A DNA stretch of 32,000 bases from an uncultured delta proteobacterium (lineage in GTDB: Bacteria; Desulfobacterota; Desulfobacteria; Desulfobacterales; JAHEIW01), in assembly GCA_963706575.1 (NCBI GenBank), contig CAVPNL010000001.1, forward strand, positions 206,311-238,310. Direction: 5' to 3'. The position numbers and the translations under genes are program-made. Below, piece after piece: positions 5,174 through 22,980 of the stretch (position 1 is the first letter of the stretch; each line of letters opens with the position of its first letter). The notes below the pieces were generated by a model. The model was not told the origin of the DNA, ran no database searches, and saw nothing but the letters and a program-made list of their open reading frames with translations.

Positions 5174-5614
5174 GGTCACCTCCTTTGCAAACTGAAGACA
5201 AACCTTCCATGGGTCTAACTTCCCTGAAAGCCCAGCTGGCGGGAAAGGGAGCCAGCCGCCTCTCTTAAGGTCGGTTCAATGATTTTTTCTTTTTCTGAAC
5301 TGAATTGTACGACAGGCACCGGAATGTTTATCGACGCCGCCACTGTCCGATGCAGATCAAATACCGGCGCTGCATGGTAATTATATGCTCATCATTATTC
5401 GCATATAAAGGTGCTCTTTCACCGTTTTTGTCAACCCCAAAAACGCTTGTACACTATTTTAGTTGAGAATTGGAATCTGCAAACCGCTTGACGAAAAAGA
5501 ATATAATTGATTTAACATTGACGCTTGCACATCATACAAATGATACAGAACATAAGCTATAAAAAGGATCAGTTTGAAATTGCGGGATGAATTAAAATAG
5601 AGGGGGGGAGTTTG

Positions 5615-6922
5615 ATGCAAAAAAAATACGATGCCATCATTATCGGTTCAGGCGTTATTGGGTGCTGTGTGGCCTTCGAACTGGCCAATCGGGGGTATAA
5701 GACACTGAGTGTGGACAAGCTCGGCGACGCCGGAATGGGTTCCACGAGCGGGTCATGCGCCATCATACGTTTTCATTATTCCACCACCGAAGGCGTGGCG
5801 CTGGCAAGAGAAGGTTATTACTACTGGCTGGACTGGCCCACCTATCTCGGGGTAAGGGACCCCGACGGCATGGTCACATACCGCAATACCGGGGCCCTGG
5901 TCATCAAAACGCCTGTCAATAAAAATCTCAGCCGTGTGAAAGCTGTTTTGGATGAATTTGGCATCGGCTATTTGGAACTGGAGCCGGAGGAGATCAGTCG
6001 CTACCTGCCCAACGTTAACCTGGCCAGCTACTTTCCCCAAAAATGGATAGACGATCCGGAATTCGGTCAGCCCACCGCGGAGAAGATTCCCGGTGCCCTC
6101 TGGATCCCCGAGTCCGGTTATATCTCAGACCCCAAACTTTCTGCGCATAACGTCCAGGTGGCGGCGCAGGCCAAAAAGGCTGAATTTTTATACGGGGCAG
6201 AAGTTTCTGAGATATTGAAGGTAAAGGGGCGCGCCGCCGGCGTCAAGCTAAGCGACGGCAGCGAAATCGAAGCGCCGGTTGTGGTGAATGTGGCGGGTCC
6301 CCACTCCTTTTTAATCAATCGAATGGCCGGTGTAGAAGAATCGATGAAGATCAAAACACGTCCGATGAAGCAGGAAGTCGCCCATGTGCCGGCGCCCGGG
6401 GGAATGAATTGGGAGCGCGATGGTTACATGCTGTCTGACGGAGACATCGGTTGCTACTCGCGCCCGGAGGTGGGTAATCACATTTTGATCGGCAGTGAAG
6501 ATCCGGAATGCGATCCGCTCCTGTGGGTGGACGACCCGGACAATTACGACACCAACTTTACCGATCAATTCAAGTGTATGGTCATGCGCGAAGGCATGCG
6601 GGTCAACGACCTGGCCATCCCCAACCAGTATCAGGGCGTGGTCGATCTCTATGACTGCAGTGATGACTGGATTCCCATTTACGACAAATCCGATCTGCCT
6701 GGATTTTACATGGCCATCGGCACCAGCGGCAATCAGTACAAAAACGCCCCGGTTGCGGGGGCGATGATGGCTGCACTGATCGATGCCTGCGAGAAGGGGC
6801 TCGATCACGATGCAGATCCGTTCCAGTTTTATATGAAATATACGCGGCGCAATCTAAACGTGGGGGTTTTCAGCCGGAATCGCGAAATCAATAAAGATTC
6901 CAGTTTTTCGGTCATCGGCTAA
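5615..6922 (+). CDS. FAD-dependent oxidoreductase (DAO / sarcosine-oxidase-beta-like family)
   Basis: The N-terminal dinucleotide fold is KYDAIIIGSGVIGCCVAFELANRG. A purine-rich RBS (gaggggggag) lies 4 nt before the ATG at 5615; the track start at 5612 is a TTG. Confidence 0.8.
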   Translation: MQKKYDAIIIGSGVIGCCVAFELANRGYKTLSVDKLGDAGMGSTSGSCAIIRFHYSTTEGVALAREGYYYWLDWPTYLGVRDPDGMVTYRNTGALVIKTPVNKNLSRVKAVLDEFGIGYLELEPEEISRYLPNVNLASYFPQKWIDDPEFGQPTAEKIPGALWIPESGYISDPKLSAHNVQVAAQAKKAEFLYGAEVSEILKVKGRAAGVKLSDGSEIEAPVVVNVAGPHSFLINRMAGVEESMKIKTRPMKQEVAHVPAPGGMNWERDGYMLSDGDIGCYSRPEVGNHILIGSEDPECDPLLWVDDPDNYDTNFTDQFKCMVMREGMRVNDLAIPNQYQGVVDLYDCSDDWIPIYDKSDLPGFYMAIGTSGNQYKNAPVAGAMMAALIDACEKGLDHDADPFQFYMKYTRRNLNVGVFSRNREINKDSSFSVIG

Positions 6923-6997: not shown

Positions 6998-7570
6998 ATG
7001 GATAAGATCAATTTGGGATCAACTATCCCCGCATACCCCATGCCTGTTTCCCTTGTGGGAGCCTATGTGGACGGCAAGCCGAATTTTATGGCCGTGGCAT
7101 GGTTTACCATGGCCAGTTATAAACCACCAAGGATTGCCATTACCCTCGGGAAGGGCCATTACACCAATCCTGGAATTAAAGAGAATAAAACCTTCAGCGT
7201 TTGCCTGCCTTCGGAGGATATGGTGGAAATGACTGATTATTGCGGAATTGTATCGGGTAAAAAAACCGATAAATCGGAGATTTTTGATCTTTTTTATGGT
7301 GAGCTGAAAACAGCCCCGTTGATCAGAGACTGTCCTTTATGCATGGAATGTAAGCTGGTGGAAATTGTGGAGAGTGCTTCGAATGAAATCTTCATTGGCG
7401 AAATCATGGGAACCTACACAGAAGATAGATTTCTGACTGATGGTAAATTGGATTTTAGAAAAATGAAGCCCTTGATACTCTCACAACCGGACACCTCTTA
7501 TTGGCGCCTTGGGGAACAGATGGCCAGGGCCTGGAGTATCGGTAAAAAATACAAAGCCAAACGCAAGTAG
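6998..7570 (+). CDS. Flavin reductase-like (FMN-binding split-barrel) protein, copy 1
   Basis: GGAGG lies 9 nt upstream of the ATG. The pattern PVSLVGAYVDGKPNFMAVAWFTMASYKPPRIAITL is typical of flavin reductase domain proteins. Confidence 0.75.
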   Translation: MDKINLGSTIPAYPMPVSLVGAYVDGKPNFMAVAWFTMASYKPPRIAITLGKGHYTNPGIKENKTFSVCLPSEDMVEMTDYCGIVSGKKTDKSEIFDLFYGELKTAPLIRDCPLCMECKLVEIVESASNEIFIGEIMGTYTEDRFLTDGKLDFRKMKPLILSQPDTSYWRLGEQMARAWSIGKKYKAKRK

Positions 7571-7693: not shown

Positions 7694-8314
7694 TCATTTC
7701 TTTTGCGCGAGCAAAATCCGGTTATTCTTTTTGCGGGATTTTTCGATTTGCTTGTCTGTTCCCCAGCGCCTGAACAGATCGTGTTCGATGCCCATGTAGT
7801 CGAACACCTTGCCGATGGTCTGGTCGATGATATCTTCGATGGTCTCGGGTTGGTGGTAGAATGACGGCACCGGGGGCAATATGTGGGCGCCCATTTCGGC
7901 AGCCAGAGTCATCAGGCGAAGGTGTCCCACATGCAGCGGTGTTTCCCTGACCACCAGAACCAGTTTGCGCTTTTCTTTCAACGTCACATCCGCCGTCCGC
8001 ACCAGCAGGTTTTCATTATAGGAATTGGCGATAGCGGAAAGCGATTTAATGGTACAGGGTATGACGACCATGCCTTCGGTCAAAAAGGAGCCGCTTGCCA
8101 GGGATGCGGCCATATCCTTATGATCGTAGACGAAATCCGCCATGGTTTCAACATCAGCTGGCTTGTAGCTGGTTTCGATTTCGATATTTAGCCGGCCGGC
8201 GTTGGAAATGATCAAATGGGTTTCGAAGTCCGTTTGCCGCAGCACGTCCAACATGCGTACCCCGTAAGTGACCCCGCTGGCCCCCGATATGCCGATCACG
8301 ATTCTTTTAGCCAT
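7694..8314 (-). CDS. ubiX: UbiX-family flavin prenyltransferase (prFMN synthase)
   Basis: The N-terminus KRIVIGISGASGVTYGVRMLDVL, the motifs LVVRETPL and IMPP-like LPPVPSFY, and a length of about 200 aa are all typical of UbiX/Pad1. Confidence 0.9.
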   Translation of the reverse strand: MAKRIVIGISGASGVTYGVRMLDVLRQTDFETHLIISNAGRLNIEIETSYKPADVETMADFVYDHKDMAASLASGSFLTEGMVVIPCTIKSLSAIANSYNENLLVRTADVTLKEKRKLVLVVRETPLHVGHLRLMTLAAEMGAHILPPVPSFYHQPETIEDIIDQTIGKVFDYMGIEHDLFRRWGTDKQIEKSRKKNNRILLAQKK

Positions 8315-8413
8315 TAATTTTTCCTTTTGGTTTAAAAACCTTATTTTTTTATATATGATTTTGGGTTAAATGAATATATTTTAACGTTTATCCTCAGAAT
8401 TTTTTTGACGAGA

Positions 8414-8803
8414 TCAAGTTTCAGAAGCAAGCCGGGCCAGAATCATCTCCACCAGGGTCTCAGTGTTGCGGACAACATGCTGGATGCCTTTAGGGGCAAG
8501 GTTGTCCCAGTGGATTCCGGCCGTGACAACGACCTGGGTTTTTAACGCAGCCGCCAGAATTTCGGCAGCGGCCTTGGCCAGTTCGTCTTCCTTGTGCCCC
8601 ACCAGGCAGATAACGGATGCGCTGGAACTGGTAACATCCGGGTCTTTGAGACTCGGGCGCGGCTGGGCCACCGCCACCGCTCCGATATGCGGTTTTTCAC
8701 CGCCCCAGATAGCCACCAGCACATCCTCGCCGATCAATCGGACGCTGGCGGACAGATTATAAGCATCTTCCTCGGTTTTTATAATAAATTCTTGGATTGT
8801 CAT
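8414..8803 (-). CDS. lpdD: LpdD-like small accessory protein of UbiD-type decarboxylases (prenylated-flavin chaperone family)
   Basis: The protein is 129 aa. The motifs WGGEKPHIGAV and VTAGIHWDNL resemble the GGxxPHIG and TAGIH motifs I recall from Lactobacillus plantarum LpdD. Its start codon directly abuts the stop of the upstream gene. Recognition is from memory, not a search. Confidence 0.5.
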   Translation of the reverse strand: MTIQEFIIKTEEDAYNLSASVRLIGEDVLVAIWGGEKPHIGAVAVAQPRPSLKDPDVTSSSASVICLVGHKEDELAKAAAEILAAALKTQVVVTAGIHWDNLAPKGIQHVVRNTETLVEMILARLASET

Positions 8804-10015
8804 TTAAAAAATTTCCAACGCAGCGTTAACAACTGCCCGGGCAAAGGCTTCATCTTCCATGTGGGCCTGGACTTCGACAATTTGGATTTGAGAATTCAAT
8901 TTTTCACGAAGCTCTTCGATAAAAATGCGATCCTCTTCGGGATTGTGTGTCGGGTTGCCCGGCATGTCCACGGACGACCACCCGTTAAGCGGTATCATCA
9001 TTCTTACCGGGCCCGCGGCACGGTTCAGTTTTTCCGCAAATACCTGGGCCACTTTTTTTAATTCATCCGGTGAAATCCGCAGCCAGGTGCGAAATTTATC
9101 CAGATCGTATTTTGCGCGTTGATGGTGCTCGGGCGTATATCTGGATTTAGAAGGCGTAATATGATTTACACTGCAGGTGGCAATGATCTGAGGGATTCCA
9201 ATCTTGCCGGCCGATTCCAGGCGATTGGGGCCCGCATCCCTCGTAAAACCGAACAGGTGTTCACCAACCCCTCCGGGCGCCAGATCGACGACACCCTGAA
9301 ATAATTTTTGGGAAATCATTTCCTCCATAGCGCGGTCGCAGATCCCGGCGGCATGGAAGCCGATGACCTGGTAGCCTGCTTTTTGCAATTCGGCCTGAAC
9401 CCGACTGGCACATTCATCGCAGGGTCCCAGCATGGTCAGTGCGATGGCCGTACTTTTGCCCGTTCCGGGTGAAGTGACGTTGCCTTGAACCATCCCGGCA
9501 AGGGCACAGGCTGCCCGATCAAAAACATTTTTAAGCAAATCCGAAAGCCCCGACAATTCGATGACCGAATGAAAAAGGATAATGTCACCGGTACCGATAT
9601 AGCGGGTGGAAAGACCGGGGAGGGCCGCGGCCGAAGAAATCATCAATTTGGGAAAACCGAAGGGCAGGGACCGCATCACTTCAGTAACCATCAGAGAGCC
9701 GGTGGCACCGCCCATGCCGGTAACCCCGTGGATTTTGCCTTCCACTTGCAGTTGCTTGGCGATGGTGGAGGCCCCCGCGATGGTGATGTTGGTTATCCGG
9801 GCGCGATCTTTCGACTGGCGGATGTCTTCAAAGCGGCTTCCCCCCGCTTCAGCCACACGATCCGGCAGAATATCGGCTTCCGAAGCCCCGTCACCGCGCA
9901 TCGAAATATCCATTAGCAGGGCATTGAGCCCGAGCGACTCCACCTGCTCCTTGAGGTATAAGGTTTCTTCCCTTTTGGTATTCAGGGTAGAGATAATCAG
10001 AACAGTCTTTTTCAT
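8804..10015 (-). CDS. Tm-1-like ATP-binding domain protein (UPF0261 family), copy 1
   Basis: The protein is 403 aa. The N-terminus KKTVLIISTLNTKREETLYLKEQV matches the UPF0261 pattern (xIxxxGTxDTKxEE). It also has GMGGATGS and an overall two-lobe layout. Confidence 0.7.
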   Translation of the reverse strand: MKKTVLIISTLNTKREETLYLKEQVESLGLNALLMDISMRGDGASEADILPDRVAEAGGSRFEDIRQSKDRARITNITIAGASTIAKQLQVEGKIHGVTGMGGATGSLMVTEVMRSLPFGFPKLMISSAAALPGLSTRYIGTGDIILFHSVIELSGLSDLLKNVFDRAACALAGMVQGNVTSPGTGKSTAIALTMLGPCDECASRVQAELQKAGYQVIGFHAAGICDRAMEEMISQKLFQGVVDLAPGGVGEHLFGFTRDAGPNRLESAGKIGIPQIIATCSVNHITPSKSRYTPEHHQRAKYDLDKFRTWLRISPDELKKVAQVFAEKLNRAAGPVRMMIPLNGWSSVDMPGNPTHNPEEDRIFIEELREKLNSQIQIVEVQAHMEDEAFARAVVNAALEIF

Positions 10016-10039
10016 CGGCTATATTTTAGTAAAGTGTTG

Positions 10040-10112
10040 CTCACGCAAAGCCGCTTAGCAAGTAAGGTTTAAAGCTAAAAATCTTCTTTGCGACGTTGCG
10101 TCTTTGCGTGAG
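10040..10112 (-). other. Intercistronic stem-loop between the CoA ligase and the Tm-1-like gene
   Basis: A perfect 11-bp inverted repeat, ctcacgcaaag (10040-10050) / ctttgcgtgag (10102-10112), encloses 51 nt that contain two tctttgcg direct repeats. No U-run follows on the coding (minus) strand. Confidence 0.5.
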
Positions 10113-10123
10113 GCCAATTAAGG

Positions 10124-11779
10124 TTAGGAACTTTCCTGTTTTACTTTCTCGGCGATTTCCTTTTTAAGCGTCTCTTTATTGACTTTTCCGGAATCGCCGA
10201 CGGCCGGAAATTCGGACACGACCTCCAAGCGTTCCGGCAGTTTGAACATGGCCAGCTGTTTGCCCTTCAGGAATTCCACCATCTCATCGAAGGCAAAATC
10301 CTGGCCGGCTTTGGGTATCACATAAGCGCAGGCGCGTTCACCCATCTCTTTGTCAGGGTAGCCGACAATAGCCACCGAGGCCACCTTGGGGTGATCGTTT
10401 AACAATCCCTCGATTTCAGCCGGATAGATGTTTTGGCCGCCGCGAATAATCATGTCTTTTGAGCGGCCCAGAATCCACAGGCATTCCTGGTCGAATTTGA
10501 CGATGTCTCCGGTGGTGGTCCAGCCATCGGGGTCGAATACCGTGGCGGTAAGCTCCTCATCACGGTAATAGCCGGCAGGCGCGTGGGGGCCTCTGAAATA
10601 GAGGATGCCGGGCTCTCCATCCGGCACTTTATTGCCGTCTTCATCCAACAGGCGTACCTTGTTGCCGGGCAGCATGCGGCCGACGGTTCGGCGTCTGAGG
10701 TCTTTGGTATCCTCCACCCGGCATCCGGATACCGAGCCCATATCCTGGGTGCCCAGGTCGCTGGTGATGACGGCACCGAAGGCCTGTTCTGCTTCTTCGG
10801 CAATCTGGGGTGAGAGGTAGCCGCCGGCAGAGCGAATAAAACGCAAAGAGCTTAAGTCATATTTGGAGGTGTCGCATTCCAGCATCCGCACCAGGTGGGT
10901 GGGGACCACACCGATGGCAGTAGCCTTTTCTTTTTCTATCAGGGCCAGGGCGTCTTGCGGGACGAACTCTTCCAGCATGACTGTTTTGGCGCCGGCCAGC
11001 GGCGCTGCAAAGTAGGTCAGAGTTCCGGCTGCACCGCCGGCGTGCGGGGCAATCGCCATGGTAATATCATTGTTGTTCAGGCCCCAGATGCTCACGCGTC
11101 CCTTTGACGTGCAGACACGGGGGGCGGTAGGCCATTCCACCAGCTTGGGCAGCCCGGTGGTGCCGGAAGTGGTTGTCAGCAGGGCGACATTCCAGAGCGG
11201 ATCCAGTCGTCTTTCGTTAAGCACATTTTCATCAATGGGATTTTCAGCGGCCTCCCGGGCCAATTGGGTCAGAGAATAGGTGTTCTCCGGAGCTGAATCC
11301 GGCACGGTGTCGTCAAAAAGGAAAATATTTTTTAGATGCGGAAAGCGCTGTTGCAGGTCCTTATACATTTCAAGATAATCAAAATTGCGGTATTCATGAG
11401 GAATCACCACCGCTGTGGCTTCCGTTCTTTCTACCATGTATTCCAATTCTCTTTGACGCAGATACGGATAGACCGTCAGAGATATGAGGCCGGCTCTTTC
11501 GCTGGCAATTCTGGCCAGAAAGCCGTAAACACTGTTTGGGGACTGAATAATAATACGTGAATATTGCGGGATTCCCATTTGAACCCAGGTAGCGGCAATT
11601 CCGTCCACTAGGCGTTTGGCCTGCGCCCATGTCACGCGAAATTTGGAATCCACCAGCGCTTCCTGGTCGCCGTACTCGCGGGCATTTCTATTCCAGAAGT
11701 CGTAAAAGAGCTCCTGGGTCCAGTATCCTTCGTTTAAAAATTCGTCCACCATCTCTTTTTGATAACGAATGGGTTTCAC
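10124..11779 (-). CDS. AMP-forming acyl/aryl-CoA ligase
   Basis: The gene has a GTG start with GGAGG 7 nt upstream. Motifs are TTSGTTGLPKLVEW, TGDIV...GRSKDMIIRGGQNIYP and a C-terminal GKVNK. Confidence 0.85.
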   Translation of the reverse strand: MKPIRYQKEMVDEFLNEGYWTQELFYDFWNRNAREYGDQEALVDSKFRVTWAQAKRLVDGIAATWVQMGIPQYSRIIIQSPNSVYGFLARIASERAGLISLTVYPYLRQRELEYMVERTEATAVVIPHEYRNFDYLEMYKDLQQRFPHLKNIFLFDDTVPDSAPENTYSLTQLAREAAENPIDENVLNERRLDPLWNVALLTTTSGTTGLPKLVEWPTAPRVCTSKGRVSIWGLNNNDITMAIAPHAGGAAGTLTYFAAPLAGAKTVMLEEFVPQDALALIEKEKATAIGVVPTHLVRMLECDTSKYDLSSLRFIRSAGGYLSPQIAEEAEQAFGAVITSDLGTQDMGSVSGCRVEDTKDLRRRTVGRMLPGNKVRLLDEDGNKVPDGEPGILYFRGPHAPAGYYRDEELTATVFDPDGWTTTGDIVKFDQECLWILGRSKDMIIRGGQNIYPAEIEGLLNDHPKVASVAIVGYPDKEMGERACAYVIPKAGQDFAFDEMVEFLKGKQLAMFKLPERLEVVSEFPAVGDSGKVNKETLKKEIAEKVKQESS

Positions 11780-11821
11780 AGGTATCCTCCCTTTGCGTGT
11801 TTAAATCGTTCTGTGGTAATG

Positions 11822-12352
11822 CTAGTCTTCCTCTTTTTTAGATGCGGCGCGTTTGGCCTTAAGACCGGCTTTAAATGTTTCCCAAAATTGCCTGTCGGTA
11901 TCTTTCCAGGCCGCTCCCCAGCGTTTTTCGAAATAGGAAACCGGTAGACGGTCATGCCAGGACTTCCAGGGATCGCGGCCTTCCTTTTTTGCGATCAATA
12001 CATCCGTCAAATAGTCAATAATGTTTGTCAGCTCTTCTTTGGGCAAATAAGACACCGCGCCCTCTTTGATCGATCGCACAAGATTATCCGGGCTCCAGGC
12101 ATGCGCGGTCAGCATGACCGCCGGGATGTTTTTGCGGGTCGCAATTTCCAGCAGACCGTAACCGTCAACCCCCATAATATCCAGGATCACCAGATCAAAC
12201 GGTTGCGATTCCAGCATTTTCCGGGCTTCCTTAAATGAAGGCGCGGTTACCAACTTACACATCGGCAGTAAATCGACCAATGTGTCCAGAACATCCTGCT
12301 CGTCGTCGACTGCCAGGACCCGTTTGCCATCCAATAACTTATGCTCTGCCAT
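11822..12352 (-). CDS. Single-domain response regulator (CheY-like receiver with an uncharacterised ~55-aa C-terminal tail, no recognisable HTH)
   Basis: VLAVDDEQDV, DLVILDIMGVDG (phospho-acceptor Asp), MLTAHAW and YLPKE match the conserved receiver-domain positions. Confidence 0.8.
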   Translation of the reverse strand: MAEHKLLDGKRVLAVDDEQDVLDTLVDLLPMCKLVTAPSFKEARKMLESQPFDLVILDIMGVDGYGLLEIATRKNIPAVMLTAHAWSPDNLVRSIKEGAVSYLPKEELTNIIDYLTDVLIAKKEGRDPWKSWHDRLPVSYFEKRWGAAWKDTDRQFWETFKAGLKAKRAASKKEED

Positions 12353-12378
12353 CTTTGCAGTTCCTTTTTACTTTTTTC

Positions 12379-12505
12379 TCTGCGGATTATTGCCACAGAT
12401 AACTCAGGTTTCGGAAAACAAATAATATCCGCAGATTTTCGCAGATTAAAAAATTATTAATAAATCTCTTTTGTTCAATCCGTGTAATCTGCGTAATCTG
12501 CGGAT
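12379..12505. repeat. Array of five to six copies of a 9-11 bp motif (AATCTGCGGAT / ATCCGCAGATT) in both orientations
   Basis: Copies are tctgcggat 12379-12387, atccgcagatt 12427-12437, tcgcagatt 12439-12447, aatctgcgt 12486-12494 and aatctgcggat 12495-12505, plus a degenerate ccacagata near 12393. The 12427 and 12495 copies are perfect reverse complements. Confidence 0.65.
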
Positions 12506-12521
12506 AAAAGCTTTTAATACG

Positions 12522-13928
12522 CTAAAGGCCTAGCTCAGACCATCTTGCCTGAACCTTTTTTACGATTTCCGGATCCAGCTCGATGGGAATTGGCTTGTCT
12601 TTCCAGTCATAGGGAATCGTGGCATCCAGCAGGAGCCGGCCGGTAATCTCCCTGGCATTTATGGGAAGCGAGGGGTCAAGCGGTGTTGATCTTCCGCGTT
12701 TAATCACCTGAGACCGGTTGGGCTGGAACCGGAAGCTCAGGGCATACATGACCCGCGGGATATCCCAGGGATCAATATCTTCATCCACGACGATAACCGT
12801 CTTCAGTCCATAGGCACCCATCTCGGTAGAAATAGCCGCGGTCAGAACCTGATCGGCATGCCCGGGATACATCTGCTTCATGGAGATGATGGCGAGAAAC
12901 CGTCCGGATCCTTCCGGCGGGCAGTAAACCCCCTTCAAGCCCGGTATTTTCATGGCCAGCAGCTGCTGCCACAGGGTCGCGCCGTATGAAAGTGCCATGG
13001 TCATATGCGTGTCGGTGACTGCTCGGCCCACGGTGGTTCCCCATAAAATGGGGTTGTTTCTGTGGGTGACGCATTTGACATCGATGTAATTGCGGGGATC
13101 CGTCCCCACCCCGGAATAATAGCCGGTATATTCTCCAAACGGCCCTTCTTCCATGAATTTATCGGCATCCACTTCACCTTCGATGACGATTTCGGCATGA
13201 GCCGGTATGGGCAGATCCACGGTTTCTCCCTTCACCACTTCAACGGCTTCGCCTCGCAGAGCGCCGTACACATCATATTCCGATACAAATGCAGATACAC
13301 GGGCCGCCCCTAAGACAAAGAGCAGCGGGTCGCATCCGATCACCGAAGCCACCGGCATGGGTTTGCCCATGGCCTGGTATTTCTTCAGCATGATGTCGGC
13401 GTGTTTTCCTTTGATGAACTGGGTGCCGATTTTGTCTTTCTCTAAAAGCTGGCTGCGGTAGGTCCCCAGATTCACCCATCCGCTCTCCGGATCCTTGCTG
13501 ATGATGAAATGGGCCGTACCGATATAGCGTCCGCCGTCAAGCGGATACCACTGGGGAACCGGGAATTTAAAAAGGTCGATTTGATCGCCGGTTAATATAT
13601 TTTCTTTACACGGTGCGCTTGATGATGCCACTTCTTTAGGCGCTATCAAGTTTTCACCCAGCTTGGCCCATTCTTCATATAGATCCCCCAGCGTGGATTC
13701 AAGCGGCATGCCCATAATCAAAGCCAGTCGCTGGGTTGTGGTGCAGACACTGGTGATGACCGGCGTGTCGTAGTCTTTGACATTTTCAAATAGGAGTGCC
13801 GGACCGCTTTGCTCTTCGTTAAGCTTGGCAATATGCGACAGCTCCAGGTTCCAATCGACTTCGGCCGTGATCCGTTTGCACAGACCCGTTTCCTCGCCTG
13901 CTGCAATAAAATCCCTCATGTCTTTCAT
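12522..13928 (-). CDS. UbiD-family prFMN-dependent (de)carboxylase
   Basis: The protein is about 468 aa. The N-terminus MKDMRDFI...LLFENVKDY and the EGPFGEYTGYYSG motif are typical of UbiD enzymes. AAGGAGG lies 8-9 nt upstream of the ATG at 13928; the track start at 13949 is a TTG. Confidence 0.9.
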   Translation of the reverse strand: MKDMRDFIAAGEETGLCKRITAEVDWNLELSHIAKLNEEQSGPALLFENVKDYDTPVITSVCTTTQRLALIMGMPLESTLGDLYEEWAKLGENLIAPKEVASSSAPCKENILTGDQIDLFKFPVPQWYPLDGGRYIGTAHFIISKDPESGWVNLGTYRSQLLEKDKIGTQFIKGKHADIMLKKYQAMGKPMPVASVIGCDPLLFVLGAARVSAFVSEYDVYGALRGEAVEVVKGETVDLPIPAHAEIVIEGEVDADKFMEEGPFGEYTGYYSGVGTDPRNYIDVKCVTHRNNPILWGTTVGRAVTDTHMTMALSYGATLWQQLLAMKIPGLKGVYCPPEGSGRFLAIISMKQMYPGHADQVLTAAISTEMGAYGLKTVIVVDEDIDPWDIPRVMYALSFRFQPNRSQVIKRGRSTPLDPSLPINAREITGRLLLDATIPYDWKDKPIPIELDPEIVKKVQARWSELGL

Positions 13929-13978
13929 AAAACATTTCCTCCTTTTCAAATTAATAAAATTGCCTTTGGTTAATATAT

Positions 13979-15046
13979 TTACGGAATCTTAATTCGTTTC
14001 ATAGCCTGTTCCATCAAGAGCTGGCGGCCGCTTTTAGCGCCAATGACGGATTGCGTCTTGCGCTGGCTCCATACGGTTTCCGGGCGGGCCTGAACAATAA
14101 ACATGTTTTCCGGAAACGGGATATCTTTATCAATGGCCCATTCGATATCCATGGGGCGGCCGTAATGGTTTTCGATATTTTTAGCAGCGCTGACCAGCGC
14201 TTTGATTTCGTCATCGGCCAGGCAGCAGGTGCACTGCATATCTTCAGCGACATCCGCGTCGACGGTTTCCCCTTTTTCCAGATCATAGACACATTCGATG
14301 TGTTTGGTTGATATGGTCCTTTCATTGATTTCCAGCATGACCTTATCGACCACAAATTTATCCGGGTTGACAGAACCGGAAACCACGGTTTCGCCCAGTC
14401 CCCAGCTGCCCTCGATGAGGACCTTGGAAATATCACCGTTGGTCGGGTTCAGCGTAAACATAACCCCGGCGGCTTTTGAATTGACCATTTTCTGAATGCC
14501 TACACTGATGAGGACCTTGTCATGGGGAAAGTCGTTCTTAATGCGGTAAGCGATTGCGCGGGGGGTATATAAGCTGGCCCAGCAATTCTGAACTTTGCGG
14601 ATAATCTGATCCGCTCCCTGAATCCAGAGATAGGTGTCCTGCTGACCGGCGAAGCTGGCGGTGGGTAAATCTTCAGCGGTCGCGCTTGAGCGCACCGCTA
14701 CGGGAATCGATTCCACGGCACATTTTTCACACAGTCCGGAATATCCATCCTTGATGGCCTCGCTGACAGCATCCGGCATTGGGGTCTTTTTGATTAACGC
14801 CTGCACGTCGGCGCTGGCATTATTGAGGGCCGCCACATCATCGGGGTTCAGATCGGAAACCCTATCGATAATCCGGGTTTTAATATCGGCATCGGTAATG
14901 AATAATAAATAACTGTCAGTAGTTACCGCAAATCCGGGCGGGACCCGAATAGCGGCTTTGATCATTTCTCCCAGGCTGGCATTCTTGCCGCCGACAATGG
15001 GGATTGAATTTTTATCCAGTTTTTCGAAATCCAGGATATAATCCAT
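13979..15046 (-). CDS. PEP-synthase N-terminal (ATP-grasp, PPDK_N) domain protein; phenylphosphate synthase beta-subunit-like (PpsB-like)
   Basis: Motifs are VGGKNASLGEM, VAVRSSATAEDLPTASFAGQQDTYL and DIEWA...IVQARPET. I prefer the start at 15046 (MDYILDF, with AAGGAAG 5 nt upstream); the alternative ATG is at 15061. Confidence 0.8.
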   Translation of the reverse strand: MDYILDFEKLDKNSIPIVGGKNASLGEMIKAAIRVPPGFAVTTDSYLLFITDADIKTRIIDRVSDLNPDDVAALNNASADVQALIKKTPMPDAVSEAIKDGYSGLCEKCAVESIPVAVRSSATAEDLPTASFAGQQDTYLWIQGADQIIRKVQNCWASLYTPRAIAYRIKNDFPHDKVLISVGIQKMVNSKAAGVMFTLNPTNGDISKVLIEGSWGLGETVVSGSVNPDKFVVDKVMLEINERTISTKHIECVYDLEKGETVDADVAEDMQCTCCLADDEIKALVSAAKNIENHYGRPMDIEWAIDKDIPFPENMFIVQARPETVWSQRKTQSVIGAKSGRQLLMEQAMKRIKIP

Positions 15047-15071
15047 ATTTGCTTCCTTCATAGCCTACCAT

Positions 15072-15104
15072 CTGAAACCCCCTCCCTAAGGGAAGGGGTT
15101 TCAG
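15072..15104 (-). other. Strong intercistronic hairpin between the PpsA-like and PpsB-like genes
   Basis: The arms ctgaaaccccctccc / gggaaggggtttcag form a 15-bp stem with one mismatch and a 3-nt loop (taa). No U-run follows on the minus strand, so this is not a canonical terminator. Confidence 0.6.
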
Positions 15105-15177
15105 CATGGAGGCTCAATTTGCATGGTCCAGATTGGCACTAAAGGCTAAAGCTTTTCAGGATAACCGCGTAAAGTGG

Positions 15178-17034
15178 TTAGCCTGCTCGTTTAACAATCT
15201 CGACCACCCCGCTGTCGCCGTCCACTTTGACGATATCGCCGGTTTTGATCACCGATGTGGATATCCCGGTGCCGGTAACAGACGGTACGCCATACTCACG
15301 GCAGACGATGGCGGCGTGGCTGGTCAGTCCGCCAATGTCAGTCACCGCGGCTTTGATTTTGGTAAACACGGGTGCCCAGGACGGATTGGTGGACGGGCAG
15401 ACCAGGACCTCACCGGGCTGCAAATCCACAATGTCTTTGAGCCGTTTCAGCACACGGGCCGGGCCCTCGGCGAGACCGGCCGAAGAGGCGAAACCTTTGA
15501 TTTCAGAAACATCCTCGCCTGCGGTTGCGTCGACACCCTTGAGCCATTCTTTCACTTTATCCGTGGTGATACCCCACAGCATAATCGTAAAAGGTTCGGC
15601 CACTTCTTCGGGCGGGACGCCCAGAGCCGGGATGGGGTTCCAGTTGCCGGCGGCTTCAAGGATTTTTTTGCGCTTTTCGGCTTTAGCTTTATAGTAGTCT
15701 CCTCGCATGGGGATATCCACACCCAGCGCCCAGCCGGTTGACACTTCGGTCAGCAGTTGCGGAATTTCATAGCGGTTAAACATAAAGATGTCATCGACTT
15801 CGTTTAACATCCCGTTGTTAACCAGCAGTGTTCCCAATTCTCTGATCTTGGCAAACCAGATGGTGTGGAACCAGTGCTCAACCCAGAAGAGGTGATCCTC
15901 GGCGTATGTATAAATGGTTCTGACCGTGTTGTAAGCATCATCAAAGGCTTTTCGATCGTCGTCGGTTTTGATGAGTTTGCGATATTCGGCCACAATTTCA
16001 TCTCTTTGTTTTTCAATCTCATCCAGTGAGCGCTCGATGTTCTCGCCGTTTTCCAGCCGTTCGACATAGCCTTTAATGTAACTGTAAGGAATGGACGGAT
16101 CGGTCAGCCAGCTGCCCTCATAATGAAACCAGCCGCTGCCGCAGGATACATAAAACCACGGGTCTTTGGCTTTCTCATACTCTGCCAGCCAATTTTTTCC
16201 ATTCTCTGTGTTTTGAAGTTCGGCGACCTTGTCTTCCACCGACTTGTCACTCTTGAGAATAGCGGAAACTTCCTTGGCGGAAGCCGCCATTTTGGAAAGG
16301 CGGCAAAGCTCTTCTTCAGGCTTGAACATGGATACATAGGCGCCGGCCACCATTTTGCCGATGGCACTTTCACTGATACCGGGAAAAAGCTTGCGGGCGA
16401 CATCGGCAAACATCAGATAGGCCAGGTAGGTCAGGTTCAGCATCTCGAAATGATACTGCCAGCCCTTAAACATCTGGTTGACCAGTTTGTCAAAGGACTC
16501 AATCAAATAGTAACTGTCGTACACCCCGGTGGGCGCCGGCAGCACCTGATCCTCGGGAACATATTTCGGCAATTCGCTGGGGACCCTCACCGCGGCCATT
16601 TCTTCGCCGAGCGCTTTAAACTTGGTCAACCATTTGTCCCAGAGTTCATTATAATGTTCAAATACATAAAATACGCGTTTTTCAAAATACCCGGCTTTCT
16701 CACCGATGATTTCTTCCGGTGGCGGGGCGATAGCGCAGATGTACATGTAACATCCCACCATTCGTTGGGCGATTCCCTGTGCCGGTGGAATACAGAATAC
16801 GCGGGTGGTATACTGTGACAGGGAAATCTGCCAGGCTTCCTGAAAAATCAAATCCAGTGGCGGCATGGGCTCCGGGGCATGGATTTTGTCCTGATACCAG
16901 AATTGGGCCTTTTCCCAATCTGATCTGTCTTCTGAAAACAGGTGGTGGGAGGGGTACATTTCTTCCCAGCCTTCAAGTTCAGGAGGGACCTGAAACTCAT
17001 GCGGGTCCGGGAATCTTCCAGATTGATCGGTCAT
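15178..17034 (-). CDS. PEP-utilising enzyme with C-terminal phosphohistidine swivel domain; phenylphosphate synthase alpha-subunit-like (PpsA-like)
   Basis: AGGAGG RBS is present. The C-terminus VLVCPSTNPSWAPVFTKIKAAVTDIGGLTSHAAIVCREYGVPSV is the mobile His domain. The 618-aa size and pairing with a separate 355-360-aa ATP-grasp subunit match the split architecture of phenylphosphate synthase. Confidence 0.8.
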   Translation of the reverse strand: MTDQSGRFPDPHEFQVPPELEGWEEMYPSHHLFSEDRSDWEKAQFWYQDKIHAPEPMPPLDLIFQEAWQISLSQYTTRVFCIPPAQGIAQRMVGCYMYICAIAPPPEEIIGEKAGYFEKRVFYVFEHYNELWDKWLTKFKALGEEMAAVRVPSELPKYVPEDQVLPAPTGVYDSYYLIESFDKLVNQMFKGWQYHFEMLNLTYLAYLMFADVARKLFPGISESAIGKMVAGAYVSMFKPEEELCRLSKMAASAKEVSAILKSDKSVEDKVAELQNTENGKNWLAEYEKAKDPWFYVSCGSGWFHYEGSWLTDPSIPYSYIKGYVERLENGENIERSLDEIEKQRDEIVAEYRKLIKTDDDRKAFDDAYNTVRTIYTYAEDHLFWVEHWFHTIWFAKIRELGTLLVNNGMLNEVDDIFMFNRYEIPQLLTEVSTGWALGVDIPMRGDYYKAKAEKRKKILEAAGNWNPIPALGVPPEEVAEPFTIMLWGITTDKVKEWLKGVDATAGEDVSEIKGFASSAGLAEGPARVLKRLKDIVDLQPGEVLVCPSTNPSWAPVFTKIKAAVTDIGGLTSHAAIVCREYGVPSVTGTGISTSVIKTGDIVKVDGDSGVVEIVKRAG

Positions 17035-17239
17035 TTTCTTCCTCCTTTCGGTGGTGGGTTAAAGATGCGTTGCGAGAAAAATGTTGCATGCAAATCATTT
17101 AATAGGCTTTCGGTCGGAGGAACTGAAACTCAGAAAGGAACTCAGAGTCAGTTGAGGTGAGAGCACAGAAGCCTGAAATTAAATAAGATTTATTTTCTAT
17201 GAAGGAATTAAATAAATCTGTCAATCCAATTTAATTTAT

Positions 17240-17261
17240 GTTATGCATAACTTTTAGTTAT
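17240..17261. promoter_or_regulatory. Candidate LysR-type operator (overlapping palindromes with GTTAT/ATAAC half-sites)
   Basis: GTTATGCATAAC (a perfect 12-bp palindrome) overlaps ATAAC-N5-GTTAT, which fits T-N11-A. The element lies 37 nt upstream of the LysR-1 ATG, in the divergent region shared with the PpsA-like gene. Confidence 0.4.
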
Positions 17262-17297
17262 GGATAAATTTGACCTATAAAAAAAAGTAAGGATGCC

Positions 17298-18284
17298 ATG
17301 TTGAATTTTAACCAGTTCCGTGTCTTTTATTATGCCGCCAAAAACTTGAATTTCACCGTTGCCGCCGGAGAGCTGTTCATTACCCAGCCGGCCGTTACCT
17401 CTCAGATCAAATCGTTCGAGGAGTTTTGCAACCTGAAGCTGTTTAAAAAAAGAGGACGCCGGATCTACCTGACAGATGAGGGCAAATCTCTTTATGTGCA
17501 TGCGGCCAAAATTTTTAAATATGAAAAAGAAATCGAACACATCATTGATGATATGCGTGAACTCAAGCGCGGAATCCTCAGTTTAGGGACGACGAAAGCT
17601 TACGCGCGTTATTTTATGCCGCTGATGATCACCACGTTTCATAAAAACTATCCCAACATTAAAATACAGCTGAACGAAGGCAGTTCACTGGAAATGATCC
17701 ACAGTTTGCTGGATTTTAAAATAGAGGTGGCGGTGATTGCCAGGACAGAAGATAACCCGGAGGTCCATTTTCTCCCGTTTAGCCGGGAAGAAATGGCGGT
17801 CATCGTTTCAACGGATCATCATTTGAGCAGGGAAAAAGCGACCACCTTTAAAGCGCTGTCTGCAGAACCCTTTATTATGAAAGAAAAAGGCTCAGGGACG
17901 CGCAAGCTGGTGGAAGAATTATTTGAAGCCGAGCAATGCACGCCTGACATTTTGATGGAAACCAGCAATACCGAGTTCATCAAACAGCTGGTGCAGCGCG
18001 GAGAAGGGGTTTCGTTTGTCGTGCGGGAAGCGGTTGCCGCCGAACTGAAAGAAAAGAAGCTGATTGCCGTTCCCCTGAAAGACCCAACAGTGTATCTGGA
18101 TGTCAGCATTGCCTACCTGAAAGGCCAGGTGCTTTCGCCGCCGGCCAGAGCCTTTGTCGATACCTTAATCGGTTTGAAGTCAGACGATTTGCACCCCATG
18201 GGAATCGGTCTGATGATGGCCAAAATGCTTACCCAGCGCAAGGAGGAGCAAAGAAAAATTTCGAAAATGAGGAAGTCCATATGA
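17298..18284 (+). CDS. LysR-family transcriptional regulator, copy 1
   Basis: The N-terminal wHTH is FRVFYYAAKNLNFTVAAGELFITQPAVTSQIKSFEE, followed by a LysR substrate-binding domain pattern. AAGGA RBS is present. Confidence 0.9.
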   Translation: MLNFNQFRVFYYAAKNLNFTVAAGELFITQPAVTSQIKSFEEFCNLKLFKKRGRRIYLTDEGKSLYVHAAKIFKYEKEIEHIIDDMRELKRGILSLGTTKAYARYFMPLMITTFHKNYPNIKIQLNEGSSLEMIHSLLDFKIEVAVIARTEDNPEVHFLPFSREEMAVIVSTDHHLSREKATTFKALSAEPFIMKEKGSGTRKLVEELFEAEQCTPDILMETSNTEFIKQLVQRGEGVSFVVREAVAAELKEKKLIAVPLKDPTVYLDVSIAYLKGQVLSPPARAFVDTLIGLKSDDLHPMGIGLMMAKMLTQRKEEQRKISKMRKSI

Positions 18285-18880
18285 GCGATCGACCTGTTTT
18301 CAAGCAAATTTATCAACTTGCCCAACCGTATCTAAACACGCGCTACAATGATGTCCACACTGAGATGTCCATGCAGCTTGCATACCAACTGCTAAGTGCC
18401 GAGGGAGGTCAGGAAAGTATTGTGATTCCGGCTATCATTCTGCACGATGTCGGCTGGCAAAAAGTTCCGGTAGCGCTTCATCTGAAGGCATTTGGTCCTA
18501 AGGCAACCTCACCGGAGATAAACAGGACTCACGAGAAAGAAGGCGTAAAGATCGCCCGAAAAATTTTAACAGAGATTAATTATGATAAGGAAAAAATTAC
18601 TGAAATACTCAAAATTATTGACGGCCATGATTCCAGAAAAAATTCTATTTCGTTAAATGATCGGATCGTTAAAGACGCAGACAAGCTCTGGCGCTATACT
18701 CAAAAAGGGTTTGAGGTAGACAACAATCGATTTGAAGAGACCGTCGCTGAAGGATTAAACCGCCTGCGCAAATATTTAGCCAGGTGGTTTTATACGGATA
18801 CGGCCTTTCAAATCGCAAAAGATGAACTCCAACAGCGGGAAAGAGAAGCTGACAATGATTCGAGGCTGGCCGGTAATTAG
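18281..18880 (+). CDS. HD-domain metal-dependent phosphohydrolase
   Basis: The H...HD...H...D pattern is present (VHTEMS, IILHDVGW, GHDSRK, KDADKL). An ATGA 4-bp overlap joins it to the LysR-1 stop. Confidence 0.75.
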   Translation: MSDRPVFKQIYQLAQPYLNTRYNDVHTEMSMQLAYQLLSAEGGQESIVIPAIILHDVGWQKVPVALHLKAFGPKATSPEINRTHEKEGVKIARKILTEINYDKEKITEILKIIDGHDSRKNSISLNDRIVKDADKLWRYTQKGFEVDNNRFEETVAEGLNRLRKYLARWFYTDTAFQIAKDELQQREREADNDSRLAGN

Positions 18881-19406
18881 TCGTGAGCAGGTTGGGGATT
18901 TTGGGCTCTTTTCATTGATTCAAAAAACGGTGCGCTCAGCACGCACGGGCGAAATCAGAGAGGTGCAGGCGATCCAATTTCCAGACTGGGTGTTGGTCCT
19001 TGCACTCACGCCGCAAGAGGAAGTCGTGATGGTGCGTCAATTCCGCCACGGCACCGAGCAGGTCTGTTTGGAGTTGCCCGGCGGGTTGGTGGATTCGGGT
19101 GACGATTCACCCGAATTATCCGCTCAGCGGGAACTGCTGGAAGAGACCGGATATCAAGCCGATGAAGTTGTACTTCTGGGAGAATGTTGCCCGCAGCCGG
19201 CGGTTTTGACCAATAAATGTCTTTTTTATCTGGCCCAAAATGCTGTCCGGGTTCAAACCCAGAACCTGGATGCCGGTGAGGATATCGAAATTTTGGAAGT
19301 TCCTTTAAAAGAGATTGCGGCTAAAATCAGAAACGAGGAAATCGATCACGGCATGGTGCTATTGGCCTTCTTCTATTTCTGGATGAAACAGGGGCAGATG
19401 GGATAG
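18855..19406 (+). CDS. Nudix hydrolase (ADP-ribose pyrophosphatase / NudF-like)
   Basis: The Nudix box is GGLVDSGDDSPELSAQRELLEETGY. I prefer the start at ATG 18855 (purine-rich gagaag upstream); the track start at 18822 is the alternative. It overlaps the HD gene 3' end. Confidence 0.8.
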   Translation: MIRGWPVISREQVGDFGLFSLIQKTVRSARTGEIREVQAIQFPDWVLVLALTPQEEVVMVRQFRHGTEQVCLELPGGLVDSGDDSPELSAQRELLEETGYQADEVVLLGECCPQPAVLTNKCLFYLAQNAVRVQTQNLDAGEDIEILEVPLKEIAAKIRNEEIDHGMVLLAFFYFWMKQGQMG

Positions 19407-19412
19407 AAAAAT

Positions 19413-20783: not shown

Positions 20784-20930
20784 TCCCTCAGCGTTGACAT
20801 AAGCCACACCATACTTATATCTAAAATGAGCGTTTGAAATTTTAAAAATGGGGATACATCTTTATTCCAGAGGAATGCTATCGATTTATATTTTTAAAAT
20901 TTAAAACCCCTACGGGGATTGCCGATCTTA

Positions 20931-21002
20931 CCGCATCTACCGCGTCAGATGCCGTTTCGCATAGTCAACTATAGCGGAACGACATCTTCCTTGTAGCTGC
21001 GG
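20931..21002 (+). other. 72-nt extended imperfect hairpin in the ferric-reductase-like / yceI-like intergenic region
   Basis: The outer arms are ccgcatctac / gtagctgcgg. The inner ~17-bp stem is gatgccgtttcgcatag-tcaa-ctatagcggaacgacatc, with a tetraloop, one mismatch, one G-U pair and one bulge. No T-run follows. Confidence 0.5.
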
Positions 21003-21071
21003 CAACCTCGACAATCGCTCAATTTAGATCTAATGATGAGCCTTTCAAATTTTAAAAGCAGGAGAAAACTC

Positions 21072-21665: not shown

Positions 21666-21866
21666 TCGGTGAATCAAAAAAAGCAATCCATCGACTTAAA
21701 GGTAGACCTGAGAATTTTTTATATTCGAATGAACTTCTTTACAGCCATAAAATATTCCGGTAAATAGACGGTGTTCAGATTTTCGATCCGGCAAAGCTAA
21801 AATTGTGTTATAGGTCGAGTAAAATCAATTCATAAAGATCCGGCGTAAGGAAAACGGTTTGCTGGA

Positions 21867-22814: not shown

Positions 22815-22980
22815 TTATCTGGTCTAACCTATCAATTGCCAAAATAGTTATTTCCAGTTTCATAAAAATTTGTTACGTGTTATCTCAATAAATCTGTAAT
22901 GAGTTGAGATTTGGTTTTCTGGCAAAAAATTGCGAATAAATTTTGCATTTAATCAGTCAGCGCAAACAAAAGGAGGGATT

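Follow-up and report, generated by a model that had tools for sequence, protein, structure and literature searches.

A Desulfobacterales gene array encoding phenylphosphate synthase-like proteins and a PpcB-type UbiD: a probable operon for anaerobic phenol degradation with UPF0261 as a constant companion

The array examined here lies at 7694-17034 of a 32,000-nucleotide stretch of contig CAVPNL010000001.1 (positions 206,311 to 238,310, assembly GCA_963706575.1) from an uncultured member of the Desulfobacterales; this whole stretch is called the window. It combines two proteins resembling phenylphosphate synthase subunits with a single UbiD-family enzyme, a coenzyme A (CoA) ligase and proteins for the supply of prenylated flavin mononucleotide (prFMN). 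An initial annotation, made from the sequence alone, proposed a variant ATP-driven system for the activation and carboxylation of phenol or another weakly acidic arene, with a subunit composition not previously described. The question raised by this locus is whether it encodes such a new system or a form of a known one. We conclude from domain content, orthology and conserved gene order that the array is probably a LysR-controlled upper-pathway operon for anaerobic phenol degradation, of the type found in the strict anaerobes Desulfatiglans, Geobacter and Syntrophorhabdus.

Gene content of the array

The array consists of eight consecutive open reading frames (ORFs), here in the order of transcription:

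15178-17034, minus strand, PpsA-like protein, 618 aa, with a C-terminal PEP-utilizers mobile domain as its sole recognised domain
13979-15061, minus strand, PpsB-like protein, 360 aa, PPDK_N ATP-grasp domain of the phosphoenolpyruvate (PEP) synthase / PPDK type
12522-13949 as called, likely 12522-13928, minus strand, UbiD, 475 aa as called and 468 aa revised, UbiD_N, UbiD and UbiD_C domains
11822-12352, minus strand, receiver protein, 176 aa, Response_reg domain
10124-11779, minus strand, ligase, 551 aa, AMP-binding and AMP-binding_C domains
8804-10015, minus strand, UPF0261 protein, first labelled "Tm-1-like", 403 aa, UPF0261 and UPF0261_C domains
8414-8803, minus strand, LpdD-like protein, 129 aa, Pfam PAC_bac, matching PDB LpdD 8pzh at E 1.7e-6
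7694-8314, minus strand, UbiX, 206 aa, 263 bits against a cutoff of 188

The ORF list and the Pfam and NCBIfam scans agree on the coordinates, common orientation and domains first described for these genes. The gaps between them are 0-169 nt, with 116 nt between ppsA and ppsB, and the ATG of the LpdD-like gene immediately abuts the stop codon of the UPF0261 gene. The mechanical ORF call begins ubiD at a TTG at 13949; read directly, the sequence carries AGGAGG ahead of an ATG at 13928, which is most likely the true start and gives a protein of 468 aa, the length seen in homologues.

Scans for sigma-70 promoters and intrinsic terminators over the array returned no more matches than shuffled sequence, and the sigma-54 consensus was matched less often than by chance, with no match in the region upstream of ppsA. 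The case for co-transcription therefore rests on the short gaps and conserved synteny. A weak terminator-like hairpin with a T-rich tract at 12427-12446 (minus strand), in the 169-nt gap between ubiD and the receiver gene, is the only such coding-strand intergenic element in the array. An Rfam scan of the whole window gave no matches.

Pfam and NCBIfam scans of the 28 main ORFs of the window detected no CBS domain, no HAD-type phosphatase domain and no second UbiD, and gaps of at most 169 nt leave no room inside the array for an 80-aa PpcC (gamma) subunit. The local absence of PpsC, PpcA, PpcC and PpcD noted in the initial annotation is therefore borne out. The sole phosphatase-like gene near the cluster encodes an HD-domain phosphohydrolase (18281-18880).

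Family assignments

PpsA carries its PEP-utilizers domain at residues 539-609 (Pfam), preceded by a family-specific N-terminal region of about 500 aa that matched no solved structure by sequence. The protein scored 865 bits against NCBIfam NF006153 (cutoff 578). The catalytic histidine of the phenylphosphate synthase alpha subunit is His569 in Thauera and His571 in Desulfatiglans anilini (PMC7500099), and His573 of the window protein, in the motif GGLTSHAAIV, aligns with the D. anilini residue (PMC7500099). PpsB consists of PPDK_N (E 1e-119, Pfam) and no other domain; it covers just the N-terminal third of the NCBIfam models for PEP synthase and rifampin phosphotransferase, and in the PDB it most closely matches PEP synthases, in their N-terminal domains. 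The window thus encodes a roughly 70-kDa alpha protein with a swivel domain and catalytic histidine and, beside it, a separate beta protein of about 40 kDa with an ATP-grasp domain only. As first suggested, the sizes of this adjacent pair, a 618-aa phosphohistidine protein and a 360-aa ATP-grasp protein, fit the phenylphosphate synthase scheme. A CBS-type gamma protein was not found among the 28 window ORFs; in phenylphosphate synthase this subunit is stimulatory and non-essential (PMC6114531).

UbiD passed the equivalog model TIGR02724 (phenyl_P_beta) with 513.5 bits against a cutoff of 468.95. It fell below the cutoffs of phenyl_P_alpha (232.9 vs 564.6), E. coli-type UbiD (238.6 vs 788) and VdcC (NF041204, 316.5 vs 650). 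In a search of 5.8 billion proteins, its best 120 matches were at least 80% identical, many of them named phenylphosphate carboxylase subunit beta; the D. anilini protein, at 84%, is among these matches. On these scores we classify the enzyme as PpcB-type. Phenylphosphate carboxylase's beta subunit is accordingly represented by a protein that its own model recognises; neither the small gamma subunit nor the delta subunit, a HAD-type phosphatase, was found in the window.

UbiX exceeded the cutoffs of both NF004685 (263.4 vs 188) and TIGR00421 (240.8 vs 108.9). The LpdD-like protein matches Pfam PAC_bac (E 5e-38) and, at E ~1.7e-6, three PDB entries for LpdD (8pzh, 8p4w and 8po5), so its label is correct, and the presence of both LpdD and UbiX in the array stands. 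At the LpdD metal site (PMC10865409), H35 and H61 are kept and D63 is replaced by Glu in all 15 orthologs; the protein is predicted to be a prFMNH2-binding chaperone.

The ligase passed no NCBIfam model. Among solved structures it is nearest to DhbE, salicylate-AMP ligase, PchD and EntE, a placement that fits activation of a hydroxybenzoate, and the protein is presumed to be a 4-hydroxybenzoate-activating enzyme.

Orthology to the phenol-induced cluster of D. anilini

The array has an ortholog-level match in a cultured relative, the phe cluster of D. anilini (H567DRAFT_02049-02059). Identities are 84% for UbiD (Ppc-beta2, H567DRAFT_02059), 80% for the ligase (H567DRAFT_02058), 75% for UbiX (02056), 68% for UPF0261 (02057) and 62% over 610 aa for PpsA (Pps-alpha, H567DRAFT_02052). 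The phe proteins are far more abundant in cells grown on phenol than on benzoate, and extracts of phenol-grown cells convert phenol and ATP to phenylphosphate (PMC6114531). The published proteome table (PMC7500099) has columns for growth on 4-aminobenzoate, aniline, benzoate and phenol; the values for replicate 1 are as follows:

02059 (UbiD): 4-aminobenzoate 1.5e9, aniline 8.8e8, benzoate 8.8e8, phenol 1.8e10
02058 (ligase): 4-aminobenzoate 8.5e8, aniline 8.0e8, benzoate 6.6e8, phenol 1.26e10; ~19-fold phenol vs benzoate
02057 (UPF0261): 4-aminobenzoate 0, aniline 5.0e7, benzoate 5.3e7, phenol 2.5e9; ~48-fold phenol vs benzoate
02056 (UbiX): 4-aminobenzoate 0, aniline 0, benzoate 0, phenol 3.9e7

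All four orthologs are thus phenol-induced in this organism, and UbiX was detected solely in phenol-grown cells (PMC7500099). The window shares the gene set of the strict-anaerobe phe type, namely ppsA, ppsB, a lone ppcB and a ubiX-like gene with no ppcA, ppcC or ppcD, and the ortholog-level identity to phenol-induced D. anilini proteins extends to the DhbE-like ligase and UPF0261.

The outline given in the initial annotation, ATP-driven phosphorylation followed by UbiD carboxylation and capture by the ligase, is upheld by the family assignments and orthology. Its claim of an undescribed composition is not: the array is orthologous to the phe cluster of D. anilini (PMC6114531, PMC7500099), the core has been published (PMC5946492), and since clusters with ppcB only are already in the literature, the central claim of novelty fails. 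That claim had also been tied to a UbiD outside the characterised PpcA and PpcB clades and to partner subunits not encoded nearby. The UbiD falls inside the PpcB family (TIGR02724, 513.5 vs 469); in D. anilini the missing subunits lie elsewhere, with ppsC-, ppcA- and ppcD-like genes at other places in the genome and ppcC absent (PMC6114531). Among the substrates put forward, the evidence strongly favours phenol over aniline, catechol or hydroquinone, the UbiD being the ortholog of Ppc-beta2 and not of the Ppc-beta of the aniline (ani) cluster.

Conservation of the array in related genomes

Scanning one genome per species yielded 260 relatives, of which we kept the best 80 loci with up to 10 kb on either side of UbiD. 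Gene frequencies were derived from tblastn synteny and ORF clustering; the denominator is the 56 loci with enough sequence for PpsA and PpsB, and 44 related loci for the other genes. All 80 loci are from Desulfobacterota-type metagenome-assembled genomes (MAGs), comprising Desulfobacterales, Desulfatiglans relatives, Desulfomonilaceae and Syntrophaceae, and relatives of the window organism include Desulfobacterales MAGs at 95-96% protein identity. Individual loci are cited below by L number.

PpsA and PpsB lie directly upstream of UbiD in 55 of 56 loci. Downstream, UPF0261 is present in 44/44 loci and is commoner than the ligase (40/44), the receiver (23/44) or LpdD (15/44); UbiX is downstream in 27/44 and upstream in the Desulfomonilaceae type. 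The complete eight-gene order occurs in at least 13 genomes, and every one of the 80 loci has exactly one UbiD. Dozens of Desulfobacterota genomes share the gene order, which is more than chance would give; like domain content, family membership and orthology, conserved synteny is observed directly for the window. PpsA, PpsB, the PpcB-type UbiD and UPF0261 form the core, usually joined by the DhbE-like ligase and UbiX. The receiver, LpdD, an HD phosphohydrolase, a Nudix hydrolase and a CBS protein are optional, the LpdD chaperone and the stand-alone receiver being lineage-specific additions. No report of LpdD in phenylphosphate carboxylase clusters was found in the literature searched.

Conservation across the array is uneven. 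Between the window and Desulfomonilaceae loci, identity is 87-90% for UbiD and 81-83% for the ligase, falling to ~62% for UbiX, ~52% for UPF0261, ~48% for PpsB and ~41% for PpsA. Either the kinase pair has been exchanged between lineages, or the carboxylase-ligase pair is strongly constrained or spreading horizontally. The Desulfomonilaceae-type loci in this comparison, made with window positions 12522-17034, span L046-L078.

Clusters of the Desulfomonilaceae type, and only these, carry a PpsC-like CBS protein after UPF0261, which ties the family to the Thauera scheme. The CBS gene and the receiver never occur together (0/12 CBS loci, vs 38 receiver loci), an exclusion that may be a lineage effect. 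Two further families, neither of them in this window, were seen at related loci. A PNPOx-like protein of 170 aa with a flavin-binding fold is encoded downstream of ubiX and upstream of ppsA at L074:6419-6931 and 13 other Desulfomonilaceae-type loci, and a DUF89/ARMT1-like metal-dependent phosphatase is encoded at L037:1921-2799 and six other loci.

Proposed pathway

As a phenol operon, the array would work in four steps. PpsB would bind ATP, and a phosphoryl group would be loaded onto His573 of PpsA. Transfer from PpsA to phenol would complete a dikinase reaction, giving phenylphosphate, AMP and inorganic phosphate. The PpcB-type UbiD would then para-carboxylate phenylphosphate to 4-hydroxybenzoate with release of phosphate, using prFMN that UbiX produces and that, in this lineage, the LpdD-type prFMNH2 chaperone delivers. 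Lastly, the DhbE-like ligase would form 4-hydroxybenzoyl-CoA, pulling the reaction and feeding a benzoyl-CoA pathway encoded elsewhere. For the window organism we infer each of these catalytic steps, the partner subunits of the carboxylase and the substrate of the ligase from the family assignments and orthology described above.

Several points weigh against this assignment. Genes for 4-hydroxybenzoyl-CoA reductase are not in the window. Phenylphosphate carboxylase activity was not demonstrable even in D. anilini extracts (PMC6114531), and in vitro D. anilini Ppc-beta2 required a second UbiD paralog for activity and then turned over phenylphosphoamidate but not phenylphosphate (PMC7500099). 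One UbiD on its own may thus not suffice, and in 0/80 related loci was another found within 10 kb. The D. anilini authors assigned 4-hydroxybenzoate-CoA ligase to gene 02049 and called 02058, the ortholog of the array ligase, "function unknown" (PMC6114531).

The UPF0261 protein

Given its universal presence and the phenol induction of its ortholog, UPF0261 is the most interesting unexplained part of the array. Under the label "Tm-1-like" it had been counted among the prFMN-handling proteins, for which we found no support; the sole activity shown for the UPF0261 family is phosphorylation of aryl hydroxyls by MarK (PMC12624787). MarK (Saro_1862 of Novosphingobium aromaticivorans) was in 2025 the first UPF0261 protein with a known activity, the ATP-dependent, ADP-forming phosphorylation of phenolic hydroxyls (PMC12624787). 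It is the best solved relative of the window protein (PDB 9MPY, E 4e-56, 31% identity), the match extending over the full length. In MarK homologues D14-T15-K16, G195, H219 and H304 are each conserved at >90%, and H219 hydrogen-bonds the phenolic oxygen (PMC12624787). In the window protein the D14-T15-K16 triad reads N-T-K, G195 and H219 are kept, H304 is Leu and H348 is Val. Across 52 cluster-type orthologs, DTK is retained in 47 and G195 in 52, H219 is replaced by Ser in 48 and H304 by Leu in 49.

UPF0261 could on this basis be a catalytic core component. It might act as a MarK-like, ADP-forming aryl kinase on phenol, at half the ATP cost of PpsAB, or on 4-hydroxybenzoate or its CoA ester as a later phenolic intermediate, or, by handling the phosphoryl group, it might take the place of the missing Ppc subunits. 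The homology to MarK, the retained ATP-site Lys and G195 and, in the window, H219 point in this direction, as do the constancy of the gene at all related loci, the ~48-fold phenol induction of the D. anilini ortholog in replicate 1, and the occurrence of a different UPF0261 subtype in the same place in clusters that have no ligase. Both D. anilini studies, moreover, leave open by what means sulfate reducers meet the pathway's ATP demand (PMC6114531, PMC7500099). The residue that contacts the phenolic oxygen in MarK is, however, Ser in nearly all cluster-type orthologs, H304 and H348 are lost, identity to MarK is low, and retention of PpsAB almost throughout means that a second phenol kinase is not obviously needed. 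We consider a catalytic role of this kind unlikely on balance.

Some variation in the family was recorded. His occupies the MarK-H219 position in the window, L003, L012 and L060, all other cluster-type orthologs having Ser, and three of these four have Asn for Asp14. At L010 the flanking genes are 93-94% identical to those of the window and UPF0261 is 70% identical; such low identity amid similar flanks suggests recombination or fast divergence at that gene.

A second UPF0261 paralog is encoded at 25973-27181 (minus strand), paired with an HpaC-like Flavin_Reduct protein (27248-27727, minus strand). The MarK residues DTK, G195 and H219 are kept in 28/28 orthologs of this paralog. The pair follows directly after UbiX in L030, L031 and L081 and lies upstream of lysR in L013, L015, L020 and L022. 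PhdC, a known prFMN maturase, has an HpaC-like fold. The Flavin_Reduct proteins of the window were considered as PhdC-type prFMN maturases, an assignment that we do not make: that at 6998-7570 is a flavoredoxin (3bnk), that at 27248-27727 matches HpaC-type reductases only weakly, and neither matched PhdC.

Other readings of the array

A structurally new system acting on another weakly acidic arene such as aniline, catechol or hydroquinone, with the single UbiD as the whole carboxylase, would account for the absence of PpsC, PpcA, PpcC and PpcD from the window and from the 10 kb around UbiD in related loci, the CBS protein of the Desulfomonilaceae type apart. Kinase specificity could also differ, since PpsA is only 62% identical to its D. 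anilini counterpart and PpsA lineages with ~41% identity accompany nearly the same UbiD, and the aniline synthase of D. anilini takes both aniline and phenol (PMC7500099). The remaining proteins nevertheless argue for phenol: UbiD, ligase, UPF0261 and UbiX each have a close ortholog (68-84%) among the phenol-induced proteins of D. anilini, the ani Ppc-beta is only 52% identical to Ppc-beta2 (PMC7500099) where the window UbiD is 84% identical, and the same reduced gene set has already been described in phenol degraders (PMC6114531, PMC5946492). We therefore regard a new system of this kind as quite improbable.

That UbiD, LpdD and UbiX form a direct, reversible decarboxylase for hydroxyarylic acids, of the kind known as Vdc, Lpd or Shd, interconverting phenol and 4-hydroxybenzoate without a phosphorylated intermediate while PpsAB serves another purpose, is highly improbable: LpdD and UbiX do typically accompany gallate- and protocatechuate-type decarboxylases (PMC10865409), and UbiD has clear sub-threshold similarity to VdcC (316.5 bits), but this score is far under the cutoff of 650 and the PpcB model was passed, no VdcD-type small subunit is in the window, PpsA and PpsB are immediately upstream in all but one of the loci scored, and the presence of LpdD in just 15/44 loci marks it as an add-on and not a defining part.

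Regulatory and accessory genes

The receiver protein has a Response_reg domain at residues 12-106, followed by a conserved Trp-rich helical C-terminal tail. The canonical residues D16, D17, D58, T82 and K105 are all present and invariant in 39 locus orthologs and 20 database homologues. An AlphaFold model with a predicted local distance difference test (pLDDT) score of 84 shows a (beta-alpha)5 fold and, at 132-175, additional helices; Foldseek returned generic matches to the receiver part only, and none to the C-terminal helices. The protein is probably a phosphorylatable regulator, judging from these conserved residues and the predicted fold.

On the other side of ppsA lie the following features:

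17247-17261, no strand, palindrome ATAAC-N5-GTTAT (T-N11-A type) in the lysR-ppsA intergenic region, candidate LysR operator
17298-18284, plus strand, LysR-type regulator, HTH_1 and LysR_substrate domains (Pfam), divergent from ppsA
18281-18880, plus strand, HD-domain phosphohydrolase, 199 aa, Pfam HD, co-oriented with lysR
18822-19406, plus strand, Nudix hydrolase, 194 aa, Pfam NUDIX, downstream of the HD gene

LysR occurs in the same position and orientation in most related loci and is the likely regulator of the operon. The perfect palindrome ATAAC-N5-GTTAT has one match in the window against 0.03 expected; its exact form recurs in just one other locus, L076, so that conservation is not demonstrated.

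The HD protein matched no NCBIfam model. Its homologues follow lysR in L009, L010, L035, L048 and L082, and distant homologues (29-32%) are encoded inside the operon, between UPF0261 and LpdD, in L030, L031, L034, L071 and L081. It is a possible pathway accessory; that it could replace PpcD, or supply dimethylallyl monophosphate to UbiX, is speculation. The Nudix protein shows weak NudE/NudK similarity, under the NCBIfam cutoffs, and its gene neighbours lysR in 13 related loci, each of them receiver-bearing; the protein too is a possible accessory. The block at 17001-23000 has a G+C content of 0.40-0.47, vs 0.49-0.55 in the flanking catabolic operons, and contains lysR, the HD and Nudix genes, a ferric-reductase-like membrane flavoprotein, YceI, a second lysR and DUF1508.

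Other genes in the window

Three plus-strand genes are convergent to the phenol operon: a gene of the aldehyde:ferredoxin oxidoreductase (AOR) family (48-1142, cut by the window start), a 4Fe-4S protein or polyferredoxin (1153-1650) and a weakly radical-SAM-like gene (1747-3171). This trio, or a pair of it, follows UbiX in L013, L017, L020 and L043 at 78-90% identity, and in D. anilini an AOR gene (02046) lies beside the phe cluster. The group could be a BamB/BamC-like reductase or a pathway-linked aldehyde-handling enzyme.

A second aryl-acid ligase (3398-5179, minus strand) has a DHB-AMP ligase similarity of 386 bits, stronger than that of the operon ligase. Beside it are genes for a DAO-family flavin adenine dinucleotide (FAD) oxidoreductase (5612-6922, plus strand) and the flavoredoxin at 6998-7570 (plus strand; PDB 3bnk, E 1.5e-60). 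A third ligase gene, 30923-32000, heads an operon that also contains genes for OYE, SDR and acyl-CoA dehydrogenase. A truncated ligase at 30923-31885 was rejected, as the frame is open to base 32000 and the gene is cut by the window end.

Significance

At the level of the pathway the gain is small, as the window holds a further, uncultivated Desulfobacterales copy of an operon characterised in D. anilini by proteomics and enzyme assays, and the operon is very common in Desulfobacterota of sediment and groundwater. The value is comparative: the 80-locus alignment separates core from optional genes and yields sharp candidates, in UPF0261, HD, LpdD and the receiver, for the biochemistry of phenol carboxylation in strict anaerobes. 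UPF0261 is a concrete candidate for two questions raised by the D. anilini and Geobacter studies, how phenylphosphate carboxylase functions without alpha, gamma and delta subunits and how anaerobes short of energy cover the cost of activating phenol. A practical lead is the LpdD homologue, in that its co-expression might give the recombinant carboxylase in active form, to which it has been refractory until now.

Comparison with known systems

The gallate decarboxylase LpdBCD of Lactobacillus plantarum and the Vdc/Bsd enzymes of Streptomyces and Bacillus share with the array a UbiD, a UbiX and an LpdD-family protein, here with H35 and H61 kept and Glu for D63. Unlike in those systems, the window UbiD is not of the VdcC/LpdC type (it fails NF041204), no VdcD-type subunit is encoded, the UbiD is coupled to a dikinase and LpdD is optional. 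MarK (PDB 9MPY) and the array UPF0261 belong to the same two-domain fold family; the genomic context differs, being a UbiD carboxylase here and a biotin-dependent acetophenone-type carboxylase for MarK, and the host here is a strict anaerobe.

With PpsABC/PpcABCD of Thauera aromatica the array has in common a split dikinase of 70-kDa and 40-kDa proteins, a UbiD-family beta subunit that passes its model and a UbiX-like gene. The Thauera proteins PpsC (CBS), PpcA, PpcC and PpcD are absent from the window, the latter three also from the 10 kb around UbiD in relatives, and UPF0261 and the DhbE-like ligase are constant extras relative to Thauera. Published identities between the D. anilini orthologs and their Thauera counterparts are 38-49% (PMC6114531), and the link from the window to Thauera is made through the NCBIfam model and these figures. 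The strict-anaerobe phenol pathway might have a different accessory chemistry instead of being a stripped-down Thauera pathway. UPF0261 would be an ADP-forming aryl kinase or phosphoryl-handling subunit that lowers the ATP cost or replaces PpcA, PpcC and PpcD, the HD phosphohydrolase a phosphatase-like partner, and LpdD, perhaps with the HpaC-like reductase, a means of oxygen-independent prFMN delivery or maturation; we hold this combined view to be doubtful.

The pps-ppcB cluster of Geobacter metallireducens is alike by published description, with ppsA, ppsB and ppcB only. Schleinitz et al. in 2009 reportedly found ppsA, ppsB and a ppcB homologue in this organism, and no recognisable ppcA or ppcC. 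Xie and Muller, who cite that study, noted that the ppcB-only, ppcC-less cluster of D. anilini agrees with that of G. metallireducens (PMC6114531). Deletion of ppsA in G. metallireducens is reported to have abolished growth on phenol (cited in PMC13101534). Clusters with only ppsA, ppsB and ppcB have thus been reported from G. metallireducens in 2009, from D. anilini in 2018 and from Syntrophorhabdus (PMC6114531, PMC5946492), and PpsAB, PpcB and a UbiX-like gene make up a core common to nitrate-, sulfate- and iron-reducers and syntrophs (PMC5946492).

D. anilini itself offers two points of comparison. Its ani cluster (Pas-alpha/beta, Ppc-beta) follows the same logic, from a dikinase through a UbiD-type carboxylase to a CoA ligase; ani and phe proteins are at most 36% identical, apart from Ppc-beta and Ppc-beta2 at 52% (PMC7500099). 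The window UbiD sides with the phe paralog Ppc-beta2, and the remaining window proteins were compared with their phe counterparts. The phe locus, H567DRAFT_02059 down to 02051 by size, order and annotation, runs UbiD, AMP-ligase, UPF0261, UbiX, three xanthine-oxidase-family genes, a 615-aa PEP-utilizers protein and PPDK_N. Gene order therefore differs, in that ppcB comes first in D. anilini and ppsAB follow the three 4-hydroxybenzoyl-CoA reductase-like genes, whereas a contiguous ppsA-ppsB-ppcB leads the window array. The window is without these reductase genes and adds the receiver and the LpdD-like protein, both absent in D. anilini. Shared by the two loci are the lone ppcB with no adjoining ppsC, ppcA, ppcC or ppcD, an upstream LysR gene and, close by, another UPF0261 paralog.

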